A stretch of DNA of 34,640 nt from Candidatus Bathyarchaeota archaeon (GTDB taxonomy: Archaea; Thermoproteota; Bathyarchaeia; Bathyarchaeales; Bathycorpusculaceae). The notes beneath the pieces were generated by a model, which had not been told where the DNA came from, ran no database searches, and was given only the letters and a program-made list of their open reading frames with translations. Shown one piece after another: positions 11,741 through 30,877 of the stretch. Where the stretch lies: positions 1 to 34,640 of the forward strand of contig CAVYHV010000003.1 in the NCBI GenBank assembly GCA_963768425.1, written 5' to 3'. Position 1 is the stretch's first letter, and every line of letters starts with the position of its first letter. Made by a program: the position numbers and the translations under genes.

Positions 11741-11744
11741 TTTT

Positions 11745-12662: not shown

Positions 12663-12677
12663 TTTGTTTTCCTCGGT

Positions 12678-13826: not shown

Positions 13827-13863
13827 ATTTCACCTTGTTACCTATGGCGAGGATTGCAACTAC

Positions 13864-14037
13864 TTATTTTGTCTTCTCCTTACTCTTAATATTTTGCATA
13901 TATTCTCTTAGCGCAGTCTCTATTTCTTCGCTTCCTTTTCGCCCTTTACCTGTTTTGCCTATAACAAAGATTTGCCACTCTTTCCAAAGGTTTTCATCAA
14001 TCGTTATTGAGGTTTTTATCCTTGCCATTTTTACCAT
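13864..14037 (-). CDS. Ribbon-helix-helix regulator (57 aa)
   Basis: Read by hand: MVKMARIKTSITIDENLWKEWQIFVIGKTGKGRKGSEEIETALREYMQNIKSKEKTK. Confidence 0.75.
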   Translation of the reverse strand: MVKMARIKTSITIDENLWKEWQIFVIGKTGKGRKGSEEIETALREYMQNIKSKEKTK

Positions 14038-14044
14038 TTATCAC

Positions 14045-14126
14045 TATACCGTTATCGGTATAAATGCTTTACGGTATAACGGTAAAGAATAAATAACACG
14101 AATACCTTTATACCTATAACGGTATA
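14045..14126. promoter_or_regulatory. Repeated (A)CGGTATA operator-like motifs
   Basis: TATACCG-TTAT-CGGTATA palindrome at 14045-14062, ACGGTATAACGGTAAA at 14071-14086, TATAACGGTATA at 14115-14126. Confidence 0.6.
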
Positions 14127-14127
14127 A

Positions 14128-14340
14128 GGGGAAATCCGTGACCGCGAAAAGACTATGAGAGGGCTAAAGACAGATACTACCGCTATACTCAAAGGATACC
14201 AAATCTTCCACAATTACATCCGACCCCATGAGGCATTAGACGGCAAAACCCCAGCCGACGCATGCGGTATCACGATTGAAGGCGAAAACAAATGGAAAAC
14301 TTTAATCCAAAACGCAAGCAAAGCAAAAACTAAAAACTAG
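14128..14340 (+). pseudogene. C-terminal remnant of a DDE (IS6-like/integrase-core) transposase
   Basis: GEIRDREKTMRGLK...YQIFHNYIRPHEALDGKTPA; in-frame stop immediately upstream, so the N-terminal part is missing. Confidence 0.8.
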
Positions 14341-14405
14341 ATACTGTTAAGTCTTTTGTCATGAATCCTTTTAAGTAGTTTTGGGGGAACTTCTCTTTGA
14401 AAATG

Positions 14406-14744
14406 TTAATGACGCCACACTACCTCTAGTATTTGCCACAAAATTGTTACGAAAATTATCGCAATACCAAGGTTCATCATAAAAGCAATTGCGATACCCC
14501 AAGGGATGCCCGCAAGCGGAAACGATGGCACAGGTCCCGAACTTGGACCAGTAAAGGAATATTGAATATATGTGTACACTACCTTTCCGAGGAAAGTGAC
14601 AACGAACCCTTGCGACCAAGTGGAATTTCCTGCACCCGTATCCGTTACTGTAAATATGTTGTGGCACCCTGCTGGAACCTCCAAGGAAGTCATCGGTAAA
14701 GCTAATATTATCCCTACCAGCAAAACGAAAACGAAAGCTCTCAT
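14406..14744 (-). CDS. Small secreted/membrane-anchored protein (transposon cargo)
   Basis: Signal-like N-terminus MRAFVFVLLVGIILAL and C-terminal hydrophobic helix. Confidence 0.55.
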   Translation of the reverse strand: MRAFVFVLLVGIILALPMTSLEVPAGCHNIFTVTDTGAGNSTWSQGFVVTFLGKVVYTYIQYSFTGPSSGPVPSFPLAGIPWGIAIAFMMNLGIAIIFVTILWQILEVVWRH

Positions 14745-14815
14745 TCTTGCCCAGACCAAGACTGTCAGTAGTTTTCCAGAGAATAGTTAAGGGCATCCAA
14801 TAAAGATTTTACGAT

Positions 14816-14868
14816 CATCAACCGAATATTCACATGAATGCTATTTCAACCGAGAACTTCACAGAACC
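14816..14868 (-). repeat. Right terminal inverted repeat of cargo transposon
   Basis: Reverse complement reads GGTTCTGTGAAGTTCTCGGTTGAAATAGCATTCATGTGAATATTCGGTTGATG. Confidence 0.85.
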
Positions 14869-14913
14869 GTATTTTGTTGTTTTGTTATTTTGCTAACATT
14901 TTATATTAGTCTC

Positions 14914-15278
14914 TTGAGGGAAAACATTCGACTCAAGACTCTGAAAACGCTGAAAAAGCAACTGAACCGTTTAACACTCGACTGCCTAAAACTCTTCACA
15001 CCGCCGTCGAAGTCCAAGCTGCAAGAGACGACTCGTCCCTTCAGAAGCTTTCACATGGCGCCTACAGGCTTTATCTCTACATCAGGGAAAACGAAGACTG
15101 GAAAGACATACCTGAAGTGCAGAAGAAAAAGGAAATCGAGAAGAAAACAATGTCGCTGCGTTGTCTTCTTGCTGCTAGAAATGACTTGGCTAAGCAAGGC
15201 ATGGATGTATCCTGGCTAGACGTGGGCGTACAGAAAACCGAGGTGTTCCTGCTTAAAAAATTGGAGCTGCCGGCATGA
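14914..15278 (+). CDS. RHH/HicB-like DNA-binding protein, start probably frameshifted
   Basis: Open frame 14910-15278 encodes PFNTRLPKTLHTAVEVQAARDDSSLQKL and ends with an ATGA overlap on the next gene; TTG at 14914 is one base out of frame. Confidence 0.55.
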
Positions 15279-15760
15279 ACAAGTCACTGCTTCTTGTTCT
15301 GCTTGCAGTCTCCGCAGCAGCGTTCAGTTTCTGTGGAGTCTTCTTCATCTTCCAGAAATCCCCGGTCTTAGCGGACTGCAGTTTACTCGGGTTATTTATC
15401 AGTGCAGTCTCAACGGTGACGGCGACCAGTTTTATCTGCCGCGGCATGCCCTCGGAAAAGTCGGAAAAGAAGAAGGCGGCGCCGAAAAATCCGCAGGTTA
15501 AGCCGGCGTCTGAAGCCGTTGAACCTGAGTCCGAGCCAAAATTGCGCAGCACGATGCTTAAGGCCTCTGTGCTGTTAGAGGGCGCAACCGTTCTGTTTGA
15601 TGAGTCACAACTGGATCAGGTGGCTCAGATAGTGGTAGATCGCAGCAGCCAGCTTCGGCTGCAGATCATGCCTGAAACTAAACCTACTGATGTGGCGCCT
15701 GAAAAAGTTGAAGCCCCTCAGCAACCTGCAGAAACAGAGCAAGAAAGCAGAACCGGCTGA
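15275..15760 (+). CDS. Membrane protein (two N-terminal helices)
   Basis: Two hydrophobic segments followed by a charged, Pro-rich tail. Confidence 0.7.
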   Translation: MNKSLLLVLLAVSAAAFSFCGVFFIFQKSPVLADCSLLGLFISAVSTVTATSFICRGMPSEKSEKKKAAPKNPQVKPASEAVEPESEPKLRSTMLKASVLLEGATVLFDESQLDQVAQIVVDRSSQLRLQIMPETKPTDVAPEKVEAPQQPAETEQESRTG

Positions 15761-15801
15761 AAAGACGCCTCTACCCCTGGTTATGCATAGGAGAACCAAC
15801 A

Positions 15802-16068
15802 ATGACTGAAAAAGCTAAGAAACCCGTTGCATCCAACAGAAACCTTCACAGTGGATCCGTAATCGCGTCAACAATCCTGTTTTTCGCAGCGTTAGCTGCC
15901 TTAACATTGTCTTCTATTCTGTACCCTGGCGTTTCCCTGTTTAGCCTGCAGAACCCAATGTTCTTTCCAATCTGGGGATTAGCTGGCTGCACATCAGCAA
16001 CCGCGCTGGTTGCCGAAGGCTCTGCAGTAAAAGCGCCCAAACCGGAGGAGGCTTCTAAAGTTGAGTAA
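15802..16068 (+). CDS. Small two-helix membrane protein
   Basis: AGGAGA RBS; 88 aa with two hydrophobic segments. Confidence 0.7.
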   Translation: MTEKAKKPVASNRNLHSGSVIASTILFFAALAALTLSSILYPGVSLFSLQNPMFFPIWGLAGCTSATALVAEGSAVKAPKPEEASKVE

Positions 16069-16741
16069 GAAAGCTACCACGTTGATTTTGCTTCTCTGCC
16101 TAAGCTGCTTATCAACAGCTTTAGTAAATGCGCAGTTGCTTTCGCCCTCAGCGCCGTCAATTTACCCCGTGAGTTTCCCAAACTTTGACATGTACGCGCC
16201 AGCCGAAATCGTCGTTACCTACACATACACTCAGAGCTACCAGGTGACTGTATCCGACTTTGGCCAAACCCTGCATCAAGAGCTCAGCAGCCCAACATCA
16301 ATGACTTTCAACACGACCGCCGACGACGTCTACAACATCACCTTCGCAGTAAACTACGACGTCTACGTCAACCAAACAGTCGCGGTAAGCCTCTTCGAAA
16401 CGGGACTTGGCGTCGCCAAAACCATGGAGCTCGGCATGGACAGCAAAGGCTTCATCATCAACATGATCGTAAGCACAAGCACTCCCCCGACGTTTCCCAA
16501 CGCAAACCAGATCGCCCAGCAAATCAGCGCCCTATTCACCAACCAAGTTAACATGCTGCAGAGCAGCAACAACAACACCATAAACAGCGTTATGACCGCT
16601 GTAACCTTCAGCTGCGCGCTCTCAGCAATAGCCATCGGCATAACAGTCGGCGTTCTGCTGCTGTTTATGCGTGGAGCCGTCAAAAAAGCGAAAATCGACT
16701 CTTTGCTACATAAGAAACCTGACGGAGGCAAGCAGGCATGA
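16061..16741 (+). CDS. Secreted, C-terminally anchored surface glycoprotein
   Basis: Signal peptide, beta-rich ectodomain with NTT/NIT/NQT/NNT sequons, C-terminal TM and basic tail. Confidence 0.75.
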   Translation: MSKKATTLILLLCLSCLSTALVNAQLLSPSAPSIYPVSFPNFDMYAPAEIVVTYTYTQSYQVTVSDFGQTLHQELSSPTSMTFNTTADDVYNITFAVNYDVYVNQTVAVSLFETGLGVAKTMELGMDSKGFIINMIVSTSTPPTFPNANQIAQQISALFTNQVNMLQSSNNNTINSVMTAVTFSCALSAIAIGITVGVLLLFMRGAVKKAKIDSLLHKKPDGGKQA

Positions 16742-17826
16742 TGTGGTTCATCAGCTTCATGACTTACTTCGGCGTAACCGTGATGGTGGCCCTTATGGGC
16801 TTAATCTTTTTTGTTTGGTATCGGCAACGAGCAGCGCCCGGTCCAGGCGTAGTCCTCGGCGAATACGAGGTAATCGGTTGCTACGCCGGCCAAAAAATCC
16901 ACACGCGAATAAAAGGCATGATGGTTGACGCAACCAGTTTTTTCTGTGCCTCAGACCTAACAGAACCTTTCAAGGACCTACTGTACGGCGACATCGACCG
17001 TTTAATCACCAAAAAACCCGCTGAGAAAGCTCCCGTGGAAGACGACAACGAGAAGCCTGAACAGATGAAACCGGATCCTGCATTAGCTGCGGAACAAGGC
17101 ATGCTTGAAAAAATCAAGAAGCAACTTAAAACTTTTCCCCTCGACAAGATCGCCACAGTAGCCATTATCCGCAACGGAGTTTTCGGCGAGAGACACTTAC
17201 TCATAAAATTCGACGAAATCAACGGTAATGGACCGCGCAGCCTCACCGATTACGCGAGCAACGAGGAAGAAAGCCACTTCACATTTGCCTTCGGACCCGT
17301 AAACAAAGGCCTCATCAAAGGCCGAATGCAAACTTTAACCGAGCCCTGGGAGTTTTCAAACGAACGTTTTCCACTTGGCGACTTCCCCGTTGGCACCGTC
17401 CACGTTCTTGTACCTGACGACCCAGTTACCAACCAAAAAAACGAAAAAACCGAAAAAGCCGCCTGGAACCTTAACGCTGCCAAACTGCTTCTCCACGTGC
17501 CAAACGTAGTTCGCCAACAAGAACACATGAAGAGCATCATGCAGCAAGTGAAAGACAAAGACTTCGCCCTCGCCCAAATGGGCGTTAAATACTCTGCGCT
17601 GGCAACAGAAACAGATGTGCTCCGCAGAGCAGTTAAAGGCTTCATGACTGAAGGCCAGAAACTTGAAGACTTGTTTCCGAAGAAACTTGACGTGCTGGAT
17701 TGGCTTTGCATCGGATTGTTCCCAACCGTGGGCTGGGCTGCTGCAGGCGCCCTGGGCATAACCTCTTTAGTAGGCGTAATCGTCGGCGAAGCATGCGCAG
17801 GATTCATTATTTACTGGCGGAAGTAG
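16738..17826 (+). CDS. Membrane protein with N- and C-terminal TM helices
   Basis: Hydrophobic N-terminus, coiled-coil-like segment, two C-terminal hydrophobic helices; ATGA coupling. Confidence 0.75.
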   Translation: MMWFISFMTYFGVTVMVALMGLIFFVWYRQRAAPGPGVVLGEYEVIGCYAGQKIHTRIKGMMVDATSFFCASDLTEPFKDLLYGDIDRLITKKPAEKAPVEDDNEKPEQMKPDPALAAEQGMLEKIKKQLKTFPLDKIATVAIIRNGVFGERHLLIKFDEINGNGPRSLTDYASNEEESHFTFAFGPVNKGLIKGRMQTLTEPWEFSNERFPLGDFPVGTVHVLVPDDPVTNQKNEKTEKAAWNLNAAKLLLHVPNVVRQQEHMKSIMQQVKDKDFALAQMGVKYSALATETDVLRRAVKGFMTEGQKLEDLFPKKLDVLDWLCIGLFPTVGWAAAGALGITSLVGVIVGEACAGFIIYWRK

Positions 17827-17836
17827 AGGCTGAACC

Positions 17837-18682
17837 ATGTCTTATGAAACCTACACGTACCAGGGCCAGCTGGACCAGCTTAAAAAAAACCGAGAAGACA
17901 TGATTGACGCTCACAAGCAAGCCCGCGAATTCATTAATGGACCGAAATTCATTGATCCATCTAACCTCTTGCCAAACAAGAAAACTTTTGACGACTTGAT
18001 ATCGAAGCTCGAGGCGCACCTGATAACTTTAACTGAGGAAACACAGCAGCCGATGCCTACTGTACCCGGAGGCAACCAGCAGATCCTGCCTTTCCCCGGA
18101 TCACCAAACGAAAACGGCGGTAACCGCCAAACAACATTAGACGAACACTTAAACGGGTCCGCCGCTGCATCATCCGGCTTCAGCCTCCCAAAAGTAATCG
18201 CGTTAAGCGTAGCCTTCGTCATATCAGGTTTGCTTGCGTGGAGCCACGTGATTCCGCCAGACTGGTTCGCAGGTGTACTGATAGTCGGCTTCGTTTTCCT
18301 CTTCTTTGACCAAATAAAAACCACGTTCGTCGACTTCTTCAACAAAACCAAGGAGCACGAGGAAACAACCCGGTCTAACCAACTTGAAAACTGGATCACT
18401 GAAAGCTTCCAGTGGATCCGCGAGAGATACACAAGCGCCGTCCTGCTTGTGCAGATACAGACAAACAGCAAAAAAACGTTGCCTGACGAATGGGCGTTGC
18501 CTGACACAGCCGAAGTCCTCAACAACCGGTCAATCTACTTCACAACAACGTTGCCCACTGAATTTCTAACGCGCATCGACAGAATCATAATAAGCTGCGA
18601 AAAAAACGTTTGGACCCGGCAACAAGTGCTAATTAACGCTATCGCAGTGACGAAGTCGGCGGCGGCCAGAGGGCCGACGTAA
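17837..18682 (+). CDS. Membrane protein with central TM hairpin
   Basis: VIALSVAFVISGLLAW and WFAGVLIVGFVFLFF helices; stop overlaps ATPase start. Confidence 0.75.
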   Translation: MSYETYTYQGQLDQLKKNREDMIDAHKQAREFINGPKFIDPSNLLPNKKTFDDLISKLEAHLITLTEETQQPMPTVPGGNQQILPFPGSPNENGGNRQTTLDEHLNGSAAASSGFSLPKVIALSVAFVISGLLAWSHVIPPDWFAGVLIVGFVFLFFDQIKTTFVDFFNKTKEHEETTRSNQLENWITESFQWIRERYTSAVLLVQIQTNSKKTLPDEWALPDTAEVLNNRSIYFTTTLPTEFLTRIDRIIISCEKNVWTRQQVLINAIAVTKSAAARGPT

Positions 18683-20826
18683 TGACTGCCACTGAGGCTG
18701 AGGCGCCCCAAGGCCTCGCGCCATCCGTCCAGTTCTCGCTTGGCTTCAACAGTTTAGTCTGGGTTGAATCACTTTTCAAACGCATAATCGACGGCGTAAG
18801 CGGCCGAGGCGGAGTAGAAGCCTTATGCAGCTACATGGACAACATCGACTTCATACCCGAACTTGTTCCCCTGCGGCAGCAGATGAAGGTAGACAGCATC
18901 TTCTTCGAAACAGCCCTGTCAAAATGCAACAAGGAAATGCTCAAGAGGCCTGAAAGCCAGCGGGAACAAGACGTCCAAGACATAATGGGCTTCGAATGCA
19001 GCGGCTGCCACCGGCAAGCAAGCCTGCTAACGATGGCCTCCGCCCATGGAACCTGCACATGCGGGGGAAAATACGCGCCTGCATACGTCGACGGCTTGCT
19101 TAAGCTTCTGGCCAGGCACATGGCGCCGTCGCCTGAAGCCGTTTTAATGAATGTGGCGTATGACCGAATCGCCAACGCCTACGTAAAAGCCTACGAAGCG
19201 CTTAAGCTTGTGATGGATCAAACAGCCGGGTTCTTCGGTTGGGACCGCTTCCGCATTGAAGATCCACAGCTTAGAAACTACCTGGACCAGTTCTTCCTGG
19301 GAAAAATGACTGGGGAAAGCAAGATTCCACGGGAAGAAAAAGAGGTCCTGCAATTCCTCATCAGAGCCAACTTGGCGGGCGTGGATCTTAAAACTGCAGG
19401 GAAAATCATTCGCTTAGCCATTGACGCGGTAAAATACGGTTACCTCTACGAAGTCCTCGGCTGCGCAGGAGCCTATCCCCTTTACGCGGAGACACTCGCC
19501 AACTTCAACCCCCTATACGACGAAGTTAACATGCGGATTCGCCAGGCGCTTTCGTCGGACCAGCATGAAGGCAAACACATGAAAATCCACGTTAAAAAAA
19601 CGCTTGGCGGCTACTATGCACCGTGCCTTCTGATGCCAAGGAACTGCTGGGAATCAGGGAAAATCGCGCAGGACATAGAAATGGAGCCGATCACCAGGTT
19701 CCCGATTTTTCCAAAAGCAGACTTCGGCGCCCTCCAAACAGTTTATGCGCCAGTCGGCGGCGGAAAAACCGTCCTGTTGAGCGCAGTCGCCTGCTACTCT
19801 ATTAGAGCCCGGGAAGAACTGATTTTCAGCCCGCTGGGCGACAAAAGCAACAGCTTCAGCTTGGCATGCATGCCACTCTTCGCCTATGACGACCGAACCA
19901 AAAAGCTCCTGCATCGACTAAAAGACACTTTAGGAGTGGAACCCGCGCCAGTTCCAGTCTTAACACTGAACATCCTCCAAAAAGGCGACAAAATCACAGA
20001 CGAAGACAAGAATCCCCCCACAGTCTTCGACCGAATAGTGGAAGTTGACGACCCAAAATCCTTTGACTTGGACTTCAAAGAAGTAATGGAAGAACTCAAA
20101 AAAAGCGGCGAATTTCTGGATTTAGGGTACAAGTCAACAACCGGCATCATCGTCGCCCGCAACTTGGACAGGTACTACGGCAAAGCAAACGTCAACATCG
20201 ACGTGCAAAACGCAATCACCCTTCTCCAGCAGTTCGACGCCTACCGAAAAAGCCATCTAAAACAGGCCTCACGAGTCTTCATCGACGAAATCAGCTACCT
20301 CGCCTCGGCCCAGGTCACCCTGTACGGCAGCGACGCCCTCAAAAGCGGCGCCACAATCAGCGACTTCATAAAAGAATCCAGACGAAACAAATCCAGCGTC
20401 GATACCGCCACCCAGCTTCCCCTGGAGGTGCTTCCGGAAATACGTGACTCCGCAACAAACGTTTTCTTCCGGGACCTGGCGCAGAGCAAAGACAAAAGCC
20501 GCAGCCAAATAGACTTCCTACTTGAAAGCTTAAAACTTAAGGAACCCACGATCAGGCCAGTGATCAGAGACATCAACGAACGCGGCCTGCTGCCGAAAGG
20601 CTACTGGTTCTGGTACCACAGGCCAGACAGAGAGATCCAGGTGATTAACCCTTGCCCACCAACCTTCTGTCTGCAGGATCCAAACAAGACGCCCAAGCAG
20701 CTCTTCAAAATGTGGCATAAAATCTCTGGGCAAAACCTGCTACTGGAAAGTTGGAAGGATGTGCCGCGCCTCAGCGTGCACCAAGGCGATAAACAAGAGA
20801 GGAAAAAAGTCAAAGGTTACGCATAA
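18682..20826 (+). CDS. P-loop ATPase, FtsK/HerA superfamily (packaging- or VirB4-like)
   Basis: Walker A APVGGGKT, Walker B VFIDE, then ESRR and TATQ motifs; N-terminal CSGC...CTCG zinc site. Confidence 0.75.
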   Translation: MTATEAEAPQGLAPSVQFSLGFNSLVWVESLFKRIIDGVSGRGGVEALCSYMDNIDFIPELVPLRQQMKVDSIFFETALSKCNKEMLKRPESQREQDVQDIMGFECSGCHRQASLLTMASAHGTCTCGGKYAPAYVDGLLKLLARHMAPSPEAVLMNVAYDRIANAYVKAYEALKLVMDQTAGFFGWDRFRIEDPQLRNYLDQFFLGKMTGESKIPREEKEVLQFLIRANLAGVDLKTAGKIIRLAIDAVKYGYLYEVLGCAGAYPLYAETLANFNPLYDEVNMRIRQALSSDQHEGKHMKIHVKKTLGGYYAPCLLMPRNCWESGKIAQDIEMEPITRFPIFPKADFGALQTVYAPVGGGKTVLLSAVACYSIRAREELIFSPLGDKSNSFSLACMPLFAYDDRTKKLLHRLKDTLGVEPAPVPVLTLNILQKGDKITDEDKNPPTVFDRIVEVDDPKSFDLDFKEVMEELKKSGEFLDLGYKSTTGIIVARNLDRYYGKANVNIDVQNAITLLQQFDAYRKSHLKQASRVFIDEISYLASAQVTLYGSDALKSGATISDFIKESRRNKSSVDTATQLPLEVLPEIRDSATNVFFRDLAQSKDKSRSQIDFLLESLKLKEPTIRPVIRDINERGLLPKGYWFWYHRPDREIQVINPCPPTFCLQDPNKTPKQLFKMWHKISGQNLLLESWKDVPRLSVHQGDKQERKKVKGYA

Positions 20827-21461
20827 TGTTTTTGCCAGCTACCTTCTACGCTTACGGCGCAAAACACCGACGCATCGCCCTGCACACAATAAAGAAAGCC
20901 AGTGAATGCCCCACAGACTGGGCGCAACTCAAGTTGCTTGTCACCAACGACTGCGTCCCCGTTCTTTTCTACGAGCACAAGTTAACCTCCGCGATCATGA
21001 CGTTTGAAACTCACCTTTCAGGAAAATACACGGTGCACACTGAAGGCGGAGTCAGAGTAGCCAAGGGCGGATACGGCGACATGCGTCTTCGCTTCCAACG
21101 TGGCGTCGAATGGACCGGCAAAGTAGTTTTGAACCCAAAGAACATGAAAGTCACAATCAGCAACTGCCAGTTTGGACCTAACATTTGGCTGCTGACCGCC
21201 GACTACTATGAGGAACGAGGCGTAAAATACAGGTCTCCAAACATTATTCCCCGACAGCTGCCGAAGCCAGGCGACCCCAAAGGCCTGCTTATGGATCCAA
21301 GCGCTTCCCGTTACGCTGACTACTCCAGGCAGCCCAAAGGACCATACGATTTCGAGCAAACAAAAAATGTGGACCTCAGTTACCGCATGGAAGCCGACGT
21401 CAGAACATATTTGCCTGAAGGCTTCTACATCCACGAAGAAAAAGAGAAAAAAGTTAGTTAG
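20826..21461 (+). CDS. Hypothetical protein
   Basis: 211 aa ORF coupled to the ATPase stop codon. Confidence 0.7.
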   Translation: MFLPATFYAYGAKHRRIALHTIKKASECPTDWAQLKLLVTNDCVPVLFYEHKLTSAIMTFETHLSGKYTVHTEGGVRVAKGGYGDMRLRFQRGVEWTGKVVLNPKNMKVTISNCQFGPNIWLLTADYYEERGVKYRSPNIIPRQLPKPGDPKGLLMDPSASRYADYSRQPKGPYDFEQTKNVDLSYRMEADVRTYLPEGFYIHEEKEKKVS

Positions 21462-21622
21462 TCAGGTTGCCCCTTAACTTTTCCCTGCTTCTCAAGGTCC
21501 GTTAAGCTATCCAACACGTCGATGATGTTCAGCTTAAGGTCCTCAGCGATCTTCTCTTCTGTCTCGTTCGGGTGCTCTCCAATGTAGTCAAGGATCCGCT
21601 CGTTATTTTCCTTATTCGCCAT
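21458..21622 (-). CDS. Small acidic winged-helix protein (54 aa)
   Basis: Read by hand: MANKENNERILDYIGEHPNETEEKIAEDLKLNIIDVLDSLTDLEKQGKVKGQPD. Confidence 0.7.
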   Translation of the reverse strand: MANKENNERILDYIGEHPNETEEKIAEDLKLNIIDVLDSLTDLEKQGKVKGQPD

Positions 21623-21633
21623 TTCATCCCCCT

Positions 21634-22467
21634 CTAGAATAATGATGGAACCACTGGTTTGTTGGGTTTCTGTTTGCTTGGACCCGGCTCAGCAAGCATC
21701 CATCTTCGTCTCTGCCGCTTGTTCTCTGCCAGCATGATTTCAACGCCGAATTTGCTTCCGTCCTTGCTCATTATGGGGCGCAGGAAACCAACGTACATTT
21801 TGCCGTAGCCATGGCTGAATTCTTTGATCGCACCCACTTTCCCAGTTTTGATAAGGTCCGCACCCATTTTGCGCAGGCCATCCTCGTCAGATTCGCCTTC
21901 TCCCCAAACCTCCAGGAAACTGTAGGGCAGAAAGTTCGAAGGCACATCAGCATCAACCGGCTCCACTTTAATGTCCTTGGTCTTTGAGATCTGAACCGGC
22001 TGCAAAGTGCCATCCGGCATCTCCTGAGCTGTGCGAACATCGGCTTTAGCGACTTCGTTACCTTTCTCATCAAACCACTTCTCAACTTTAGAGGGCCCAA
22101 TCAACTCTTTATGCACGATCTCGCCCTGCGGCCCGATATGCTTGATTTTCACAAGTGAATCCGTCTTCTCCGTTTCGTAGCGGACATCTGCCGAGACGCT
22201 TATGCCGATGTTCTTGTACTCCAGCTTCGCCTTGAAACCCGGCGGCAACTTCTCCTCAATAACTTCAGCTGCTGCAGCTGTCTGAGGCATCTTAAGAACC
22301 ATAGTCTTCTGTTTAGGCCTAGTAGCCGCTTTAACAGGCTGAATTTTTTTAGCTGCTGCCTGAGCCTGTTTGGTCTGGGTCTGCTTCTTAAGCTTCGCGG
22401 AAACAACGTTTTTAACTGTAGATTTCCGCTTCAAAACATACTGCTGCTTACTGGCTGGCTTCTTCAA
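21634..22467 (-). CDS. Divergent Ku-like DNA end-binding protein with basic N-terminal extension
   Basis: GNEVAKADVRTAQEMPDG, KTKDIKVEPVDAD and LIKTGKVGAIKEF...VGFLRP follow, in order, the prokaryotic Ku segments GEEV.YEDIVKGYE, TKTIEIEEFVD and L..TGKVAIAKF...ALRP; DNA ligase two genes away. Confidence 0.6.
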   Translation of the reverse strand: MKKPASKQQYVLKRKSTVKNVVSAKLKKQTQTKQAQAAAKKIQPVKAATRPKQKTMVLKMPQTAAAAEVIEEKLPPGFKAKLEYKNIGISVSADVRYETEKTDSLVKIKHIGPQGEIVHKELIGPSKVEKWFDEKGNEVAKADVRTAQEMPDGTLQPVQISKTKDIKVEPVDADVPSNFLPYSFLEVWGEGESDEDGLRKMGADLIKTGKVGAIKEFSHGYGKMYVGFLRPIMSKDGSKFGVEIMLAENKRQRRRWMLAEPGPSKQKPNKPVVPSLF

Positions 22468-22497
22468 TACTCAACACTTCTTACAAGAAAAAACAGA

Positions 22498-22776
22498 TTA
22501 TTCCAGGTTTTGGCCGATCCGCAATTCCCATTCGTTATCAAAATTGCTCATCAACGAAAACAATTCGCCTTCGTCAGTGTCTTCCACAGGAACCGCGAAC
22601 CATTTTCCGCCTTTACTTAAAACTATACGTTGACCCTCGTCAGTATCCTGCGTTCGTGCTGTGACACCCATCAGGATTGTCCTCTTCTGCTTTGAATCTA
22701 AAACCTGGCCAAGTCGCTTCATAGGGCATATTCGCGGTCTTCGCCCATACGTTTTCTTGCTCTCTTTCCTATACAC
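22498..22776 (-). CDS. Hypothetical protein with basic N-terminus
   Basis: GTG start after GAGG; lies between ligase and Ku-like gene. Confidence 0.6.
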   Translation of the reverse strand: MYRKESKKTYGRRPRICPMKRLGQVLDSKQKRTILMGVTARTQDTDEGQRIVLSKGGKWFAVPVEDTDEGELFSLMSNFDNEWELRIGQNLE

Positions 22777-22806
22777 TTGAGACGCCTCAAAAGAGAAAAA
22801 AGAAAC

Positions 22807-23826
22807 TTAGTCCGGCAACTTGACTTGCGCCGCCGGTTTATCTGGTCTTTCCCTCAAAAAGTCAGGCATGCGTAGGATCCCGTTTGGCGTGCGATTAAGA
22901 AATTTTACTTCAATAACCATTTTAGGCTGCACCCAGCCCTGCACGTTGACGTCACCGGGAACAACAACCTGCGGCGCCTTCGCCTGCATCGATTTCATCT
23001 TCTTAAGCATCGCGCCTAACTCGGAGTTCTTCAGCGCCGCCGTTCTGCCGACGTAGTGTAGTTGGCCTTTCTTGTCTCGCTGCGCCAGGATCAGGGAGCC
23101 GAAGGTTGATGCACGTGCGCCTTCACCTTTAGTGTAGCCGACGACGATTGCTTCGTCGCTTTTCCAGTTTTTGACTTTTATCCACTCCGGCGTCCGAGCA
23201 CCTTGCCGGTAGGGGCTGTCAAGGTCCTTGAGGACGACGCCTTCCAGTTTTCTCTTCTCAAGTTCCTTGAACTTGTTTTCCTTCGCTTGGACGCCTCTTA
23301 CGCTATCTGGAACAATGATGTGCGGCGTGTTCTTGGGAATAATGGTTTTGAGGATCTCCATGCGGTCCTTGTATGGTAGCCCCTGCAGGTCCTCGTCGTC
23401 GACGTAGAGAACATCGAAGATAACCAGCTTCGCCTCAACGCCTTCTTCCTGGATCTTCTCGTCGTTGGCCAACGCATTGAGGAAATAGTCCCGGTCCGTG
23501 CCCTTCTTGAAAAAGGTGAATTCGCAGTCGAAGATTGCCCGGTCAACCGGCAACGTTTTGACTTCAGCAAGTATTTCGGGGTGTTTGAGGCCGTAGTCGT
23601 TTACCCAGTTTCTGCTTCCGATCAACTGCACACTGTCGTAGTCTTTGATTCCTGCGGTTCTGCTTCCATCGTATTTTCTTGTCTCGTCTTTTTTGGGGTC
23701 TTTAATGTCGGCTTTGGTGCCGTCTTGAACCAGCATTGGAGTGATTTTCTGATGGTAAATCGCTGGTGCCGGAGGCCGCTTTTTTCTGGCGCCATATTGA
23801 GAAGTCGACTTTGGGTTGTAGGGCAT
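22807..23826 (-). CDS. ATP-dependent DNA ligase (LigD/LigC-like minimal ligase)
   Basis: Motif I KYDGSR, III FDCE, IIIa IFDVL, IV EGVVLK, V WIKVK, OB domain with LRMP.F.RERPDK. Confidence 0.92.
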   Translation of the reverse strand: MPYNPKSTSQYGARKKRPPAPAIYHQKITPMLVQDGTKADIKDPKKDETRKYDGSRTAGIKDYDSVQLIGSRNWVNDYGLKHPEILAEVKTLPVDRAIFDCEFTFFKKGTDRDYFLNALANDEKIQEEGVEAKLVIFDVLYVDDEDLQGLPYKDRMEILKTIIPKNTPHIIVPDSVRGVQAKENKFKELEKRKLEGVVLKDLDSPYRQGARTPEWIKVKNWKSDEAIVVGYTKGEGARASTFGSLILAQRDKKGQLHYVGRTAALKNSELGAMLKKMKSMQAKAPQVVVPGDVNVQGWVQPKMVIEVKFLNRTPNGILRMPDFLRERPDKPAAQVKLPD

Positions 23827-23901
23827 GGCTATCGGAAGAAAAATGATTTTTGTTACGCCGGCAAAAAAAGGTCTCCGACTGCGGTTTCTAGCGTAACATT
23901 T

Positions 23902-24471
23902 TTAGAACGCCCAAACCAGTTTGGGTACGCCTAAAGCTTTGGCTGCTTCGTCTCTGGCCTGGTCGGTGCCCACGTTTCCCAGGTTCTTTAAGCCTTGAGG
24001 CGTAACCAGCTGATAGGACCTGCCATAATAGTTGTGTTCTCTGCCTCCGCTGGCCTGAGAAACCTCCAGTACGGATCCGACTGGGTAGCTTCCGCTGAAC
24101 TTGAACTTCATCAACGTTTTGGTTTTCTTTTCTGCTTCCTTCTTTTCCTCTTCGGTTTTGGCTTCGTCAATGGCTTTTGTATCCTTGATTTTCCGCCAGA
24201 TCTTCGCTATGTCGATGAAGGACCGTGTTACTCGGCCCTGAGAGTCAACTTTCAACTGGGCTGCCCAGCTTTTTCCTTCCCGCGGATCCAGAAACGCGCT
24301 TTCAAAATTAACTTGCGTAATCTTCTGCACCGGGGCGGCTGGAGGCGGAGCAAGATGCGGTTTAGCTGGAGACTTGACTGGAGACACAGGTGTCTTCTTC
24401 ATGGTTAAGTTTGGAAGAAACGTTTGGCGTCTGACGCCGTATTGAGATGTCTTTTTAGGGCTGTAAGACAT
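23902..24471 (-). CDS. Hypothetical protein sharing its N-terminal peptide with the ligase
   Basis: 189 aa ORF; MSYSPKKTSQYGVR, Pro-rich linker, then a globular domain. Confidence 0.7.
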   Translation of the reverse strand: MSYSPKKTSQYGVRRQTFLPNLTMKKTPVSPVKSPAKPHLAPPPAAPVQKITQVNFESAFLDPREGKSWAAQLKVDSQGRVTRSFIDIAKIWRKIKDTKAIDEAKTEEEKKEAEKKTKTLMKFKFSGSYPVGSVLEVSQASGGREHNYYGRSYQLVTPQGLKNLGNVGTDQARDEAAKALGVPKLVWAF

Positions 24472-24594
24472 GGTTCCACGATAGAAAAAGAAATCAGTCG
24501 TTTTTCGGCTTGATTGTTAACGTGATCAGCTGAAAGTTCGGGTTCCGCGACCTTCTTGTTAAACGAACTTTCTGTTTTTCTTTCAGTGACTGAC

Positions 24595-25559
24595 ATGACA
24601 GTGTTTGACCCCCAAACTGAAGAGTTCCTGGCTGCCATGGGCACCTCCGCCAAAACGTACCGTCCGGCCCTAACAAAATTTCAAGCGTTCCTTGTGAATT
24701 TGCCGGATCCTTCCTGGAAAGATTCTGCTGCGCCGCTGCAGCTGTTCCTCGACAAAGTCGAAGAAGACATGACAAGGCCAAAGCGGCAGCGGCTGAGAAT
24801 AGCGCGGAAAACCCTCCAGGGCTTTGTCGACTACTTAAAAAGCAGCGGCAAATCGGGGAACACCGTGAACACTTACGTCGCCGCCGTCCAAAGCATGGCA
24901 TCTTTCTCCGAAACAGAGTTAACCCGAAAATTCGTTGACATACCTAAACCGAAAGCCAAAACGAAAGCGTATCCCTGGGGAGTGCAAATGCTTGAGAAGT
25001 TCATCAAGCTCGAGAAGAAACCACTGTACCAGGTGATCACAGGGCTTTACTGGCAAAGCGGATTAAGCGTCGGCGACGCAACAAGAATCCTGTATGGCGG
25101 CATAAAAGACGAGTTTGAAGCGGAAGTCTGCCCTATCTGCCTGGACTTTACCAGTGAAGGCCGACATAAAACAGGCGTGGAGTTCCGAAGCTTCTTTGGC
25201 GCAGAAACCATCGAGTTATTCAAACGTTACTTCAAAGCTGAAGGAACCCCTGAAGCTGAGGATCCCGTTTTCCAGTGGGTGAACGCGCCATCCAGAAGAA
25301 CTACGCGAGCATAGCTGAAGAGATCATTGGGTCATACGAGGGACGCAACCCAATGGCGGAGCACACGATCCGCAAAAAGTTCCGAACCAACATCGTCAAC
25401 GCCGGCTGCCCCGAAAGCTACGCGGAATATTTTATGGGCCACAACCTAGGCGGTGACCTGCGGAAAACCTACACGTTGATGAGCAACGACCAGTGGCGTG
25501 TAGAATACAAGAAAGTCATGCCTGCAACAGCGTTCAAACTGCCCAAAGTGGCTGTCTAA
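24595..25559 (+). CDS. Tyrosine recombinase/integrase (frameshift near 25270)
   Basis: SAM-like SGNTVNTYVAAV, SGLSVGD, RHKT, HTIRK, MGH and KTY; one extra T in gttttccagtg joins the halves. Confidence 0.88.
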
Positions 25560-25679
25560 TGCTCGAATTGAGGGAGCCACCCGAGAATGTTGGCGGCTAA
25601 TCAAAATTCTTGTGGCTGCGATAGCACAATCACAATAGTACATGTAGCATGATTCCCTGCCTATTCTCGGTGCAAAGTT

Positions 25680-25853
25680 TTGTCAAAAGCTCAACCTCAT
25701 CCAGGTCATGAAAAACACCTCTGCAAAATGGTAGAGGACAAAGTACCCATAGAGAAGATTAAGCCACTTGTGAAAGATGCGAAATACATCTGCAAAGGCT
25801 GCATGCGAACTGCTGCCAAAGCAGAAAGCCTCTGCGCCCCAGAACCTCTCTAA
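25680..25853 (+). CDS. Small His/Cys metal-binding protein (57 aa)
   Basis: Read by hand: MSKAQPHPGHEKHLCKMVEDKVPIEKIKPLVKDAKYICKGCMRTAAKAESLCAPEPL, followed by a T-run. Confidence 0.65.
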   Translation: MSKAQPHPGHEKHLCKMVEDKVPIEKIKPLVKDAKYICKGCMRTAAKAESLCAPEPL

Positions 25854-26129
25854 ACTCTTTTTTTGAAATTGGAATAGCTAATTTAGGATTGCTTTTTTCT
25901 ATCACACAATTTCGATTCTTGGTAACAGTAGGTCATTAGAAAAAGTTAGTTCTTTGGGAGATACTTGAAGTACTCCACTACGCCGCTTGCTATTCCGGTT
26001 AGGTTGTTTCGGCTTGCAGCAGTATGTCCGTCCACGAGAACACGGTCGTACTTCACGCCTTTCCTAACAACAATTCTCGGCCAGGCAGCCGCACCTGTGT
26101 TTGTTTTGGTCTCTTTTGCCGGTAACCCA

Positions 26130-26336
26130 CTAAGTCTCCTCCTCTTCGTCTCGGTCGTCAGTAGACGTTGTGTTGCCAGTTATGCTGTCTTCAATATCCG
26201 CTTGCACACATTCCTCGCGCAGCAGGATCCTGAGCTTCTCTTCTAGAGACTCGGCGTGGTCAGAGAAAATAGGTTCCCTGAGTTTTATCTTGAAAACTTG
26301 AGCTCTCTTCCTTCTTCGCTTCTCTTGATAACTCAA
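26130..26336 (-). CDS. Small hypothetical protein (68 aa)
   Basis: TTG start after AGGTGA: MSYQEKRRRKRAQVFK...DEEEET. Confidence 0.5.
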   Translation of the reverse strand: MSYQEKRRRKRAQVFKIKLREPIFSDHAESLEEKLRILLREECVQADIEDSITGNTTSTDDRDEEEET

Positions 26337-26994
26337 CGCTGCTTCACCTACAAGAAAAAACTTCAAGAAAATTATTTCCAGTTTTCTTTGCCATTGAAAA
26401 CGTAGAGCTTGCCGTCTGGGCCCAAGTCGCTGATTACTTCAGTGTTAACTGGCAGCGTCACCTTGGACACGGCGCCGGTGCGTTTGCCAGTTTCCAGGTC
26501 CCGGCCGTAATGGTCTCGTGCTTCAGTTCGGCTGTCGCATAGCCAGATTATAATCGCTAAAACAGAATTAAATTATTAACAACTTTAAAGCTTTTGCAGA
26601 AGAAGTAACCATTAAAGTGCCCTATGTGTGGTGGAGAGTTTAGTTGAAGAATGAGCCTAATTGTGATTGTTTGACAGTGTTTTTCGCTTTTGCTTTCTTA
26701 TTTACATGGTTTTGGAGTTGGCTTCGGAGTTGGTTTTGGAGGACACGTTGGTGTAGGGGTTGGTTTCTGTGTTGGTTTAGGCGTTGGTGTCTGTTTCCGT
26801 TTTTGGATTTACAAATCAAGTTTGGTGTTTTCCGAGAAATGATTTGGTGATTCTTTTTTGGTTCTGGGCTTCTTCACCTGCTTTCTTCTGGAAACTCCTA
26901 GTTAGCCTCTGGAAACTAGAGGTATGGAATAAGTGATTGGGCCCGACAAAGACGTTCCAACTGGAATTTCAAGGAAGACTTACAGCTCTGAGGC

Positions 26995-29451
26995 TCAAGT
27001 TATCTTACGTTTTCTTGCTGTTGCCATTAAGCATAATGACACTGCAATAAATAGTATAAAAATTGCCAGTAATGATGGAAACTCTGGAGTTATCGGAGAT
27101 GGCGTATTAGCTGTACTATAAACGGTTGCCAATTGAGCATTACTGTTAAGCTCAATAGCTTGTTCATCTAAGTCCATTCCATTATTGCTGCTTTCTAAAA
27201 CTATTGTATTGTTGCCGTGGGAAATGTCGATTGCAGGTATGTCAAAAGTATATGTTTGGCCAATAGTGCTCATGTAAATGGTGTCGACAGGGTTTCCTTT
27301 GTTTTGCGAAAATGAATCGTAATCGCTTACAATATTTGGAATTGAGTAAGCGGTTACATATGTTGGATTGATTACGGCTTCCGTTTTTACCGTTAGGGTA
27401 TAGTAGTTTGATTTTGCATTGGTCGGTATAATGGTAGTGTCAAAGGTGTAAAAACAGACTATTTTTACTCCGTCACTGAACATTATCATCGGTGTTCCAC
27501 TGGCACCGCCTATACTTTCAAATCCACCATAGGACAGCGGAAACATTGTTACAGAGGTCACAAGTCCATTTTTGGAGATTATTGGTGTCGGAACAGGCGT
27601 TGGTGTTGTTTGTGATGGTGTTGGCGATGAAGTAGGATTTGTAGTTGGTTGTTGAGTAGGCGTTGGTGAAGGAGATGGTGAAGGGCTTGGGCTTATGGTT
27701 GGCGTTGGCGTAGGTGTTTGTAATGGAGTAGGTGTGGCTACAGCAGTGGGTGAAGGTGTTGGAGTTGGCGTGGGGGTTGCAGTTGGTTCAGGAGTAGGGG
27801 TTGGTGTGAGCGTTGGATTAGGAGTGGGTGTTGGAGTAGGCGTTGGGCTTGGTGAAGGAGAAGGTGTAGGAGTTGCCGTGGGGGTTGGAGTTGGAGCTGG
27901 GGTAGAGGCACTTATGCTTCCAACCTGCATCGTGCTGTCGTATGTTCTGAGCCCGATTGCGCCCGAAGCAAAAGTTGAGTCTGTCGTGGTTAAAACAAGA
28001 ACATTGTTTACATTTAATGTAATAGTGCTTCCTTGAGCAACAACCTGTAAGGAGTAAGTTCCAGCGCCATTAGATGATGCAGTTCCAGAACCTTTTATTT
28101 CAGAGTATGTTCCGCCAACGACTTTACTTATACTGTATTGATGCCCCCAGTCACCTATGCCTGCCCAATAGAAATCGTTTGAATCGCTGAATCTGAAAAC
28201 AATGCTGGCTTCTCCTCCTGCAGATATGGTAACAGGTGTAGTTATTTGATAGTCTGTCCATGAACTGGGACCAGCATACATTAAAGCCTCTGCAGAACTT
28301 GACCCTTGCACTCCACCGCTTGTTGGTGTCCATGTGCCGTCTACAATAGTCCAAGCATTCAGATTAGCAAAGTTATCATTAAACGGCAATGTTGGAGTTG
28401 GCGTTGGAGTAGGTATTGACGTTGGAGTGGGTGTTGGTGAAGGCGTTGGTGTCGGTGTAAAGGTTGCTGATATTGTAGTTACCCCCCGAACGTTTTGGAT
28501 ATTATAGGAGCTAACTGCGCCAACGGAAGTTCCGTTAACCGCAACATCAAGGATATCATAATCAGTGTTAGGTGTTATAGTGAAGCTTTTACCGCCGCCA
28601 TAATTAAGGCTAAAAATTCCACTTGGAGAAATAGAACCACCGGCACCAGCAGAAGCATTAATGCAAATTGGAGCCTCAAAGTTAGGTTCGGTTAAAAATG
28701 GAACAAAATTAATGACACCGAAATTAAAATCATCCTTAAAATCATACATTGTTTGGTTAATTGCCTGAGAATCAGTTGCACCCCACCAATTATTGGGTAC
28801 ATCAATGTTGTTTGAGATACCGTTGTATACATTGTACTGATTGTTATAGATATTGTTGTAAAATATACTAGCCGATGAACTATCTACCTCTATCCCTGTA
28901 CCTGTTGGGTTACCAATAATAGTGTTGTTTTCTATCGCTGGGCTTCCTCCTGCAGAAATGCCTAGCGAACAATTATAAATTAGATTATTGGTAATTTGGT
29001 CGTTGTCTCCTGTTTCAATACCACGACCGCAGCCTGTTAAGATGTTGCCAAAAATTTCAGCGGCTGCATTAGTATTTTCATAATCGGCACAAAGGATTCC
29101 ATCGCCTCCCTCTCCTTGGACTCCAAATCCCTCAATTGTATTATTTGAAATAATCGGAGAACCTGAAACTGGTAATTCTGAATAAACTGAGATTCCCGTT
29201 GGGGCAGGTATATTCAATGCCGTTGATTGAAGCAAAATATTGTTATTTGATATTATTGGTGATCCTCCGCTTATTTGTATTGCACAACTTTGATAATTGT
29301 CATCAATGCAGAATACTATAGTATTATTATCTATCTTAGGCGACGCATTTTGTATGTTAATAGCATAGGTTCCTCCATGTTGTACTGTCATGACTGCATT
29401 TTCGATAATGCAGCCAGTTCCACTCTGTTCATTCCAACTGTTACTCAAGGG
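26995..29451 (-). pseudogene. 5'-truncated cell-surface protein (beta-helix repeats, beta-sandwich domains, Pro/Thr linkers, PEF-CTERM anchor)
   Basis: ISNNxI repeats, NNWWG motif, long PT repeats, C-terminal PEF + TM + basic tail; no signal peptide, and the ORF's first 15 codons lie inside the IS end. Confidence 0.8.
27585..27905 (-). repeat. Pro/Thr/Ser low-complexity coding repeat
   Basis: Degenerate 6 bp repeats encoding (PT)n and (PS)n linkers. Confidence 0.85.
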
Positions 29452-30577
29452 GGCTTTGGGACAAAAGTTCTTTGAGCTAATTTCTTCGTTGCCCATTGAG
29501 TGAATGTTCAGAAGATAAGATATGCTTTTTGTAATCTAGAATCACACGAAAAAAGACTATGATAACCTTATAACTAGCTCAACGCTTTAGCGTTTCAACC
29601 ATGAAGCTGATGGTCAAAAGCGCTAAAGAAATGCTAGCAGTTCTTGACGAAACCAAAGAAGACATTCTTTAAAGATAGAAAATGCACCTACCCCTACACC
29701 GAGTGGGAACACAAACGAGCCCAAGTCAAAGAGCGGCTCCACCGCCTCCCAGAATACATCCACCAAGCCGTAGAAGCCATAAACAGAGAAGAGCAGAAGA
29801 TGGGCAGGCCGCCAAAACTTGACCTGGAAAAGAAAGTTAACCTGTTCATACTGGTGAGGTTTCTCAATAAATCTAACCGTAACGCAGAGGAATCACTGCA
29901 GTATTTTCAGCCCCTCTTCGGAGTTGACGTCAGCTACAAGTACATAGAACGCCTCTACAGCGACCCAGAAGTCAAACTGGCACTTCATAACTTGTTTGTT
30001 TTGCTGCTAAAAGAAGAGGGAGCCAGCGGCGATTTAGCTGGGGATGGAACAGGCTACTCTGTTAGCGTTGAAAATCATTACCGAAGTGACCCCAAAAAGT
30101 ATGGTAAGAAGTATGTTCATTTCTTCTCGCTGATTGATCTTGCAACAGGGATGTATGTTGGCTGCGGCGTATCGCGGCTGTCGGAGTGGGATGCTTTCTC
30201 TAAAGCGGTCGCAATGATTAAGACGATTGGGGTAGCGGTGAAGTCAATTCGTCTTGATAAGTACTTTAGTACACGAAAGGTGATCAGAATGTTTGATAGG
30301 TCGGTTTCTTTGTTTTTGATTCCTAAGAAAAACATTGCAAGGATCGGTGCTTGGGCTGATATTTTAGCTAGGATGATGGCTTCTCCGGTTGATTTTCTTA
30401 TCGGAATATTTTCATAGGAATGTGTGTGAGAGCGGTTTTTCAGCTGACAAAGGACGATTTGGAAGAACAATCAGGCAGAAAAGAGAAGACAGGCAACAGA
30501 CAGCGCTCTTCTCAAACGCCTTTTTCCATAATCTCTACGCCATAAGAATTAACCCAAAATAGTTTTGTCCCAATGCC
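29452..30577 (+). mobile_element. Insertion sequence, ISNCY/ISA1214-like
   Basis: 17 bp TIRs GGCTTTGGGACAAAAGT (29452-29468) and GGCATTGGGACAAAACT (reverse complement of 30561-30577); no TSD seen. Confidence 0.85.
29601..30562 (+). CDS. DDE transposase, ISNCY/ISA1214-like (two frameshifts)
   Basis: VSYKYIERLYSDPEV, GDGTGY, RLDKYFS, and RNVCESGFSADK in the downstream frame; shifts near 29655 and 30400. Confidence 0.85.
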
Positions 30578-30877
30578 GACTGCTGATTGATAGGGAGACT
30601 GCAAGTCAAAGTTCATAAGCGCCGCTAAAACAAGATAATATTCACGAAAAATAGAAAAAGAAAAGAAAAAAATAGTCTTTTAAGATGCTGGAGCAGCTGC
30701 AGGAACTGAGGAAGGCGGAGTTGGAGATGCGGGTGTTGGATCCGAAGCTGGTAATTGTTTCGAGGCTTCTGTGACGATGCTTTCTATTTGTGATAGTAGT
30801 TGGGTTGGGACAACTCTAATTCAGATTTGAAAATTGAAAAAACAAAAAAGAAAGGGAAGGTTTGTTGCTTCTTTGGT

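Follow-up and report, generated by a model that had tools for sequence, protein, structure and literature searches.

In the two-component non-homologous end joining (NHEJ) of bacteria such as Mycobacterium tuberculosis and Bacillus subtilis, the partners are Ku and LigD. Mobile elements are also known to carry relatives of Ku, and phage Mu encodes one of them, Gam, a small end-binding dimer that acts alone as a nuclease inhibitor. Among archaea, only 10 of the 243 genomes surveyed had both Ku and a LigD ligase domain, and the archaeal operon of PrimPol, Ku and ligase/phosphoesterase is a Methanocella-type system (both as given in the excerpted text of PMC7719229). The mycobacteriophages Omega and Corndog bring a Ku of their own and borrow the ligase of the host, according to the excerpted part of PMC12848934. 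The subject of this report is a stretch of 34,640 bp (the window), which is the entire contig C3 of a 2.96-Mb Bathyarchaeia genome in 33 contigs, and on which an integrated mobile element of this peat-dwelling archaeon encodes both a divergent relative of Ku and a LigD-type ligase.

The two genes lie in an operon of five tightly packed open reading frames (ORFs) of 189, 339, 92, 277 and 54 amino acids (aa), running on the minus strand from 24471 to 21458. An earlier, sequence-only reading of this DNA had placed a Ku candidate two genes downstream of a ligase, and its coordinates and gene order agree with the ORF map. Several of the products begin with a common short peptide, here called the tag. 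The genes of the operon and the integrase that faces away from it are as follows.

23902 to 24471, minus strand: 189-aa protein, first gene of the operon, with tag MSYSPKKTSQYGVRR and C-terminus VPKLVWAF
22807 to 23826, minus strand: stand-alone LigD-type ATP-dependent DNA ligase, 339 aa, with PF01068 and PF04679
22498 to 22776, minus strand: accessory protein of 92 aa, whose tag is a weak version, VYRKESKKTYGRRPR
21634 to 22467, minus strand: divergent Ku-family protein, 277 aa, with a predicted fold matching Ku
21458 to 21622, minus strand: winged-helix protein of 54 aa, encoded immediately after the Ku-like gene, with sub-threshold winged helix-turn-helix matches
24556 to 25559, plus strand: tyrosine recombinase (integrase, by Pfam), divergent from the module and split into two frames in this copy

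The ligase and the Ku-like protein form a real, divergent, element-borne two-component module of the bacterial Ku–LigD kind, for which we infer a function in end joining. It resembles bacterial two-component NHEJ in having a Ku-fold protein of around 270 aa, predicted to homodimerize, beside a LigD-type ligase. It differs in that the Ku-like protein escapes the Pfam model of Ku (PF02735) and carries a 72-aa basic N-terminal extension with the tag common to the ligase, in that the ligase is without polymerase and phosphoesterase domains (lost or never had), and in being carried sporadically by a mobile element of an archaeon: out of 401 genomes sampled from the phylum, the Ku-like family turned up in its own genome alone. 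Canonical Ku, by comparison, was found in 12 of the 401, concentrated in the genus of the host (6 of 10). The host itself has a canonical NHEJ operon on contig C14 (L001, C14:352914–356453), which encodes PrimPol (PF21686, 4.4e-78), Ku (PF02735, 2.6e-38) and a ligase fused to a 3'-phosphoesterase (PF13298). The element's pair shares with it the genome, the pathway logic and a ligase that is 35% identical over 208 aa, but has neither polymerase nor phosphoesterase, and its Ku-like protein has no BLASTP similarity to the host Ku. Since the host operon is complete, the element adds a second, unrelated-looking set and not a missing pathway; from this and the single occurrence among 401 genomes, it follows that the module is accessory and sporadic and no copy of the host system. 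With the mycobacteriophages the element has in common that Ku is encoded by mobile DNA, and its best viral structural match is the Ku of phage Dylan, a member of cluster O. Unlike them, it brings its own ligase and lives in an archaeon. The likeness to Mu Gam lies in a small Ku-related end-binding dimer on a mobile element; Gam is shorter, and the element differs from it in having a conserved ligase partner and no Pfam match to Gam at E ≤ 1.

The ligase had been described as a clear minimal enzyme, and the searches with Pfam, NCBIfam and solved structures bear this out. Pfam recognized the adenylation (nucleotidyltransferase) domain PF01068 (1e-27) and the OB domain PF04679 (1.3e-16) and no other domain; motif I is K51-Y-D-G, with Lys51 at 23674–23676, and around 25 extra N-terminal residues precede the core. 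The best NCBIfam models are those of LigD and NHEJ ligases (PRK09632, 9.7e-50; TIGR02779, NHEJ_ligase_lig, 2e-49), and the protein scores below the curated cut-offs of these models (168.5 bits for TIGR02779, against 227.75 required). Among solved structures, M. tuberculosis LigD comes closest with its ligase domain (1vs0, 9.7e-29, residues 26–335). As the best models and the best solved relative are thus both of the LigD type, the protein is a stand-alone LigD-type ligase core. The primase-polymerase PF21686 and the phosphoesterase PF13298 were absent from the 35 window ORFs scanned with Pfam (9 + 22 + 4), in keeping with the earlier statement that neither domain could be recognized, and from the 156 ORFs of related loci that were scanned (21 + 135).

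The case for the Ku-like protein rests first on its predicted fold. The AlphaFold (AF2) model, built from the family alignment, has a mean predicted local distance difference test (pLDDT) of 68.8, with a core at approximately residues 75–250 at 75–90 and the first 70 residues below 50. A search of the PDB with Foldseek gave 92 matches at E ≤ 1e-3, of which the best 47 were all Ku entries, headed by apo MtbKu (9ig8_A, 3.8e-7), human Ku (1jey_B, 7.1e-7) and B. subtilis Ku (9vnq_A, 1.3e-6), with Ku alignments covering around 200 columns. In the viral structures of BFVD just two matches reached E ≤ 1e-3, and both are phage Ku proteins, that of Mycobacterium phage Dylan (9.6e-7) and a COG1273 homologue (2.8e-5), the next standing at 1.7e-2. 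VIA-align, which is independent of Foldseek and was run against 48,161 chains, ranked bacterial Ku first, that of M. tuberculosis (9i91_A, Z 10.8, root-mean-square deviation (rmsd) 3.0, 113 aligned) ahead of 9vnq_A (Z 10.5), and gave a human Ku chain Z 10.4. The Ku β-barrel and bridge fold, whose absence from a structure prediction would have refuted the sequence-only reading by its own terms, is thus present in the model, with Ku as best match in both the PDB and the viral library. The three best language-model neighbours of the protein are also Ku clusters (score 0.81), which is a lead only.

The model has an insert of approximately 65 residues, with strands within 108–157, and this arm is where a partner would be held. 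A symmetric homodimer of the Ku-like protein was predicted with a score of 0.65, against 0.00 for the best of three controls; among proteins of solved structure, 20 of 30 one-chain pairs and 1 of 23 single chains attain the mark used for this score. Repeated runs agreed in at least 96% of contacts, with a partner pLDDT of at least 84 and 280–330 contacts, and the interface is centred on arm residues 100–149 with cross-strand pairs such as 130:121 and 147:109. Because Ku dimers have already been solved, the score may mirror likeness to them, and a predicted dimer is no proof of self-binding by this protein.

At the level of sequence the link to Ku is indirect yet consistent. Among 34 distant relatives scanned, PF02735 was matched by 12 at E ≤ 1 and by 3 above its 25-bit cut-off (P0073, 32.6 bits; P0070, 27.8; P0072, 27.0). 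A hidden Markov model (HMM) made from the 21 most distant relatives recovered the window protein at 3.2e-35 and 5 of 12 canonical Ku proteins at 15–18.6 bits (E 0.06, Z = 1e6). When the extended alignment (A2) was compared with the 12 canonical Ku proteins by hhalign, 134 columns were colinear (E 0.003), and the narrower core-family alignment (A1) gave 24 columns at E 0.2. The three Ku-like segments that had been seen in the right order are thus colinear with Ku, although the sequence signal behind them is weak.

Several results weigh against a kinship with Ku. The Foldseek template modelling (TM) scores are low (0.33–0.46), at an rmsd of 7–15 Å, and in VIA-align the SPOC domains come nearly equal to Ku, at Z 8.8–10.1 (best 6ic8_A, 10.1). 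SPOC shares its barrel with Ku and does not bind DNA ends, and the barrel by itself cannot tell the two apart. The hhalign probability for A2 against Ku is just 10%. In searches of the PDB sequences, the A1 profile met no Ku (best the ATP synthase b subunit, E 0.16), and the A2 profile placed Ku at 0.088–0.089, behind ribosomal protein L9 (0.005). An HMM of the 12 canonical Ku sequences found nothing in the family (Z = 1e6), a BLASTP comparison with the host Ku gave no better than E 3.2, and the window protein has no PF02735 match at E ≤ 1 in Pfam, staying below the cut-off of the Ku family. Against the likeness to SPOC stands the arm: SPOC, a β-barrel of the same fold class, is a eukaryotic, monomeric, peptide-binding domain that is not known to have one, and the Ku-like model has the inserted residues and forms its predicted dimer interface with them. 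Taken together, the 277-aa protein is very probably a remote homologue of Ku with the architecture of Ku.

Other features of the protein can be read along its length. Its ORF opens with a TTG one codon after an in-frame stop, and the parts are these.

22252 to 22467, minus strand: residues 1–72, the tag and a basic Lys/Ala/Gln-rich region
21718 to 22251, minus strand: residues 73–250, the barrel core
21973 to 22170, minus strand: residues ~100–165, the inserted arm
21637 to 21717, minus strand: residues 251–277, a basic C-terminal tail ending VPSLF

The composition of the N-terminal extension, described earlier as around 70 aa rich in lysine, alanine and glutamine, was upheld: residues 1–72 contain 16 K, 12 A and 9 Q (51% K/A/Q) and have a net charge of +15, and the first ~17 of them are the tag common to the ligase and other neighbours. 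The contrast then drawn with bacterial Ku, whose basic tail is usually C-terminal, needs correcting, as the last 27 residues are basic too (+6) and form a conserved segment (ENKRxRRRWM ... VPxLW). In a 31-member family alignment it is the N-terminal peptide, the core and this C-terminal segment that are conserved. The window protein belongs to no family in Pfam, PHROG or NCBIfam. A phmmer search over 1.84 billion representatives found 43 relatives, 10 of them below 1e-30, and at E ≤ 1e-3 the family comprises 36 clusters (90% identity), all of them lacking both a Pfam domain and an informative name. No fused forms were found among proteins of 486–2000 aa, a search that gives weak evidence, and of 8 pattern matches to the family in IMG/VR viral contigs 0 were confirmed.

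Whether the two parts go together was followed through the related loci, 77 in number (cited by L numbers), of which 74 come from metagenome contigs and 3 from Bathyarchaeia genome assemblies. Of the 77, 22 contain a homologue of the ligase, most of the loci being too short to show one. Where at least 1.5 kb is available upstream of the Ku-like gene it is found in 17 of 24, and where at least 2.5 kb is available (the well-flanked loci) in 12 of 14, in 11 of these upstream. The ligase-linked loci cover Ku-like identities of 39 to 97%, and the pairing is thus conserved. The spacing between the two genes is variable and holds nothing (L024, L078), the 92-aa protein, LPD29 proteins, small C-x-C...C-x-H proteins or a methylase. 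Downstream of the Ku-like gene, 56 loci have at least 250 bp of sequence, and in 46 of these the winged-helix gene comes next. Defence-type genes are seen nearby, among them AbiEii (L019), GmrSD (L009), Schlafen/AlbA_2 (L035), restriction-modification methylases (L002, L012, L046, L054) and, in L003, a PLD nuclease together with a DUF1156 methylase. As a separate observation, metallo-β-lactamase/β-CASP nucleases lie near the Ku-like gene in two loci (L002, 2720–4552; L078, 329–1723); the β-CASP class includes Artemis, the nuclease of eukaryotic NHEJ.

A further tie between the two proteins is the tag itself, M-S-Y-(R/K)-(K/R)-x(3-5)-Q-Y-x-x-(R/K)-(R/K), which stands at the start of proteins that are functionally unrelated. 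The Ku-like protein begins ..KKPASKQQYVLKRK and the ligase MPYNPKSTSQYGARKKR; with that of the 189-aa protein these are the only 3 matches of the strict pattern in a six-frame translation of the window, all at the three N-termini, and the 92-aa protein has a weaker form. The positions of the peptide, and of a C-terminal (V/I)-P-x-L-W/F with which some tagged proteins end (VPxLW in the Ku-like family, VPKLVWAF in the 189-aa protein, which resembles it, PNLW or LPLW in others), are given here.

24427 to 24447, minus strand: tag pattern, 189-aa protein
23782 to 23802, minus strand: tag pattern, ligase
23776 to 23826, minus strand: ligase tag, residues 1–17
22426 to 22449, minus strand: tag pattern, Ku-like protein
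21637 to 21660 and 23905 to 23930 in the window; 1207 to 1818 in L074, 653 to 1063 in L062 and 2627 to 3037 in L076: C-terminal (V/I)-P-x-L-W/F

Nearly all Ku-like proteins carry the tag, as do the ligases with a complete 5' end in the related loci (14 of 14 by eye, 10 of 14 by regular expression). Others that carry it are LPD29 proteins, the small C-x-C...C-x-H proteins (SWIM-like by eye), MoxR-type AAA_5 ATPases, VWA proteins and many proteins without a family, and runs of five or six consecutive tagged genes occur, for example in L041 and L042. The tagged ATPases recur near the module in L004 (1–1413), L024, L029, L041, L052 and L060, and VWA proteins near it in L024, L052 and L060. A relaxed pattern matched 124 of the 1,730 mechanical ORFs of the window and the 77 loci, as against 27 of 13,136 in the host genome, counts that are descriptive because the pattern was not defined blind. 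Just 6 of the 27 look genuine, 3 in the module and 3 on contig C19, and the latter (L091, C19:28000–41216) form an AAA_5 cluster like that beside the module in L004, in which the AAA_5 gene seems to be split. The codons that spell the tag differ freely at synonymous positions, and selection therefore acts on the peptide. By eye, many tagged genes have a T-rich box (ATTTTTCTTT-like) 10–25 nt upstream; its 15 matches in the window, against 8.4 expected and with 3 of 100 shuffles reaching 15, are no enrichment.

The tag suggests that the Ku-like protein, the ligase and a variable set of companions are brought to one place. Co-delivery or a common docking site came into consideration because the proteins from which LPD domains were defined are believed to be delivered along with invading DNA (PMC5512222, in its excerpted text). 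Tentatively, the unrelated tagged proteins of the element might share one address peptide, serving either for co-delivery with the DNA or for docking on a common DNA-end hub. Co-delivery would, by analogy, correspond in a "distributed" form to the polyvalent proteins that phages and conjugative elements have; for docking, an analogy is offered by the Ku-binding motifs that occur in eukaryotic NHEJ factors. If the peptide is such an address, the arriving DNA would meet end protection and ligation at once. It offers a testable recruitment or delivery signal, and nothing resembling it was found in the literature searched.

That the module travels with integrase-bearing elements is seen from its surroundings. 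The window encodes, besides the integrase (Phage_int_SAM_1, 1.2e-3; Phage_integrase, 9e-4), an MCM helicase and two proteins that are ParB-like and TFIIB-like, respectively. A Bathyarchaeia contig of 109.7 kb contains another copy of the module, 97% identical (L004); the window is colinear with L004 over 14869–24532 and differs from it by cargo insertions and deletions: a 3.2-kb block of low guanine-plus-cytosine content (0.36–0.43) with three family-less ORFs, at 11688–14869, is in the window only and absent from L004, and two genes occur in L004 alone, one for rubrerythrin, inserted between 24532 and 24557, and one for DprA, on the far side of the integrase. Contigs of 4 runs, compared with 15000–34640, break at 24532/24557 and carry replacements at 25598–25941 and 26082–26367 that match the L004 variant; no circular or empty-site junction over 15000–34640 was found in them. 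No RNA run with this sequence was among the 24 runs listed. No tRNA genes were found as attachment sites. Homologues of two neighbours, of 714 aa (p714) and 211 aa (p211), accompany the module in L006, L027 and L029. The integrase is split into frames of 252 and 94 aa where L004 has an intact 324-aa version, and lacks one C of a C-run near 25272 in comparison with that gene. The MCM lies in two overlapping frames, 5936–6649 (N-terminal and OB parts) and 6577–7980 (AAA+ and lid), a layout that may be a frameshift, a programmed shift or an assembly error; the C lost from the integrase and the split of the MCM could reflect decay or assembly error.

With a ligase of its own next to a divergent Ku relative, the element is probably able to protect DNA ends and to rejoin them unaided, and the pair is, on a balance somewhat in its favour, a minimal self-contained module for end joining or end protection. 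DNA-end binding, cooperation with the ligase and the biological role are what we infer. From the fold and the predicted dimer, the Ku-like protein would homodimerize through its inserted β-arm and bind the ends of double-stranded DNA as Ku does; from its domains and the conserved linkage of the genes, the ligase would seal those ends, and the basic N-terminal region and C-terminal tail may give contacts to DNA or to partners. The module would most likely act on the element's own DNA, holding and rejoining or circularizing linear copies on entry or after excision, and might alternatively mend breaks made by host nucleases. A number of facts speak against so self-sufficient a role. The window offers the pair no polymerase, phosphoesterase or nuclease, so that joining would be limited to ends that can be ligated as they are, unless enzymes of the host assist. 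The host already possesses canonical NHEJ, two of the 14 well-flanked loci (L017, L072) are without a ligase, the contig has no terminal direct or inverted repeats, and this copy may be decaying, since its integrase and MCM are each split in two frames.

The alternative that survives best, unlikely as we hold it to be, is a Gam-like end protector, in which the Ku-fold protein does no more than cap the linear ends of the element and block host exonucleases, in the manner of Mu Gam, and the ligase serves replication or nick sealing instead of end joining. The fold and predicted dimer suit any end binder of the Ku/Gam type, end-processing enzymes are indeed absent from the scanned window ORFs, and the Ku-like gene of the two loci just mentioned does without the ligase. 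The element also has its own MCM helicase, so that the ligase could serve replication; yet it is the Ku-like gene that the ligase adjoins, in a linkage held in 12 of 14 loci, and not the MCM gene, which lies some 15 kb off in the window. Moreover, the ligase is of the LigD type and not of the replicative type with a DNA-binding domain, it shares its N-terminal tag with the Ku-like protein, and the Mu Gam family gave no Pfam match.

A use as defence or exclusion cargo, benefiting the host or shutting out competitors, for instance by error-prone joining of viral ends or repair of breaks caused by defence, is slightly less probable again. There is a precedent in the excerpted text of PMC12848934, where host NHEJ limits a mycobacteriophage via imperfect repair at cos sites, and related loci do set the module among the defence-type genes listed above; in this host, however, canonical NHEJ is already at hand, and the module lies divergent from the integrase and beside conserved backbone genes of the element (the p211 and p714 homologues in L006, L027 and L029). 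The tag, too, is common to LPD29 proteins, from a domain family of DNA-delivered proteins (PMC5512222, as excerpted), and points to the establishment of the element. Least likely of all is a Ku/SPOC-fold scaffold that binds no DNA ends and organizes its neighbours by holding peptides or proteins such as the tags, its likeness to Ku being structural only: the near-equal SPOC scores, the weak sequence links and the many unrelated tagged neighbours in need of a receptor would allow for it, but Foldseek, which aligns the arm as well, placed only Ku among its best 47 of 92 PDB matches and found phage Ku in BFVD, the arm and the predicted intertwined dimer are features of Ku and not of SPOC, relatives pass the Pfam threshold for Ku, and the conserved neighbour is a LigD-type ligase.

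With the element-borne end-joining module as the favoured reading, a family of Ku relatives (36 clusters, 74 metagenome loci) that is invisible to the models of Pfam, PHROG and NCBIfam travels with a LigD-type ligase on archaeal integrative elements. No description of such an archaeal Ku-like/ligase module was found in the literature searched; the main text of a paper on Bathyarchaeia viruses (PMC10848311) has 0 mentions of ligase, Ku70, end joining, NHEJ or HerA, and its supplementary gene tables could list such genes. If the pair is active, it would be among the smallest self-contained end-joining systems and would open a way to study the survival of archaeal elements as linear DNA, and surveys based on PF02735 would undercount Ku.

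The 54-aa protein has sub-threshold Pfam matches to DprA_WH (1.4e-3) and HTH_24 (3.4e-3) and a match to the MarR-type phrog_1687 (6.6e-5), and by these profiles it is probably a DNA-binding regulator or accessory. The 92-aa protein was modelled by AF2 as a helix, four strands and two helices (pLDDT 77.9); the fold searches gave no convincing match (Foldseek best E 0.32, a PUR repeat; VIA-align best Z 5.2), and its homologues are placed between the ligase and the Ku-like gene in L004–L008 and L035. The 189-aa protein has no match in Pfam, PHROG or NCBIfam, and among the related loci its homologues occur only in the near-identical L004 and L005. It was considered as a relative of LPD29 and set aside, as only the 15-residue tag aligns with the LPD29 alignment (E 0.21).

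Elsewhere in the window, a 714-aa P-loop protein (18682–20826) has HerA/FtsK/TraG-type ATPases as its nearest language-model clusters (0.92, again a lead only), and three proteins encoded at 16061–18682 have N-termini that are membrane- or signal-like by eye; together they hint at a DNA-translocating apparatus for transfer or packaging. A 103-aa ORF at 2644–2955 is a borderline match to Hjc, the archaeal Holliday junction resolvase, its 21.1 bits being exactly the cut-off. Beyond the integrase, a NosD/β-helix surface-type gene of 833 aa (26995–29496, minus strand) contains, at 26704–28470, 17 overlapping copies of a G/T-rich repeat with a period of 6/12 nt, and the contigs of other samples show length variants at this repeat.

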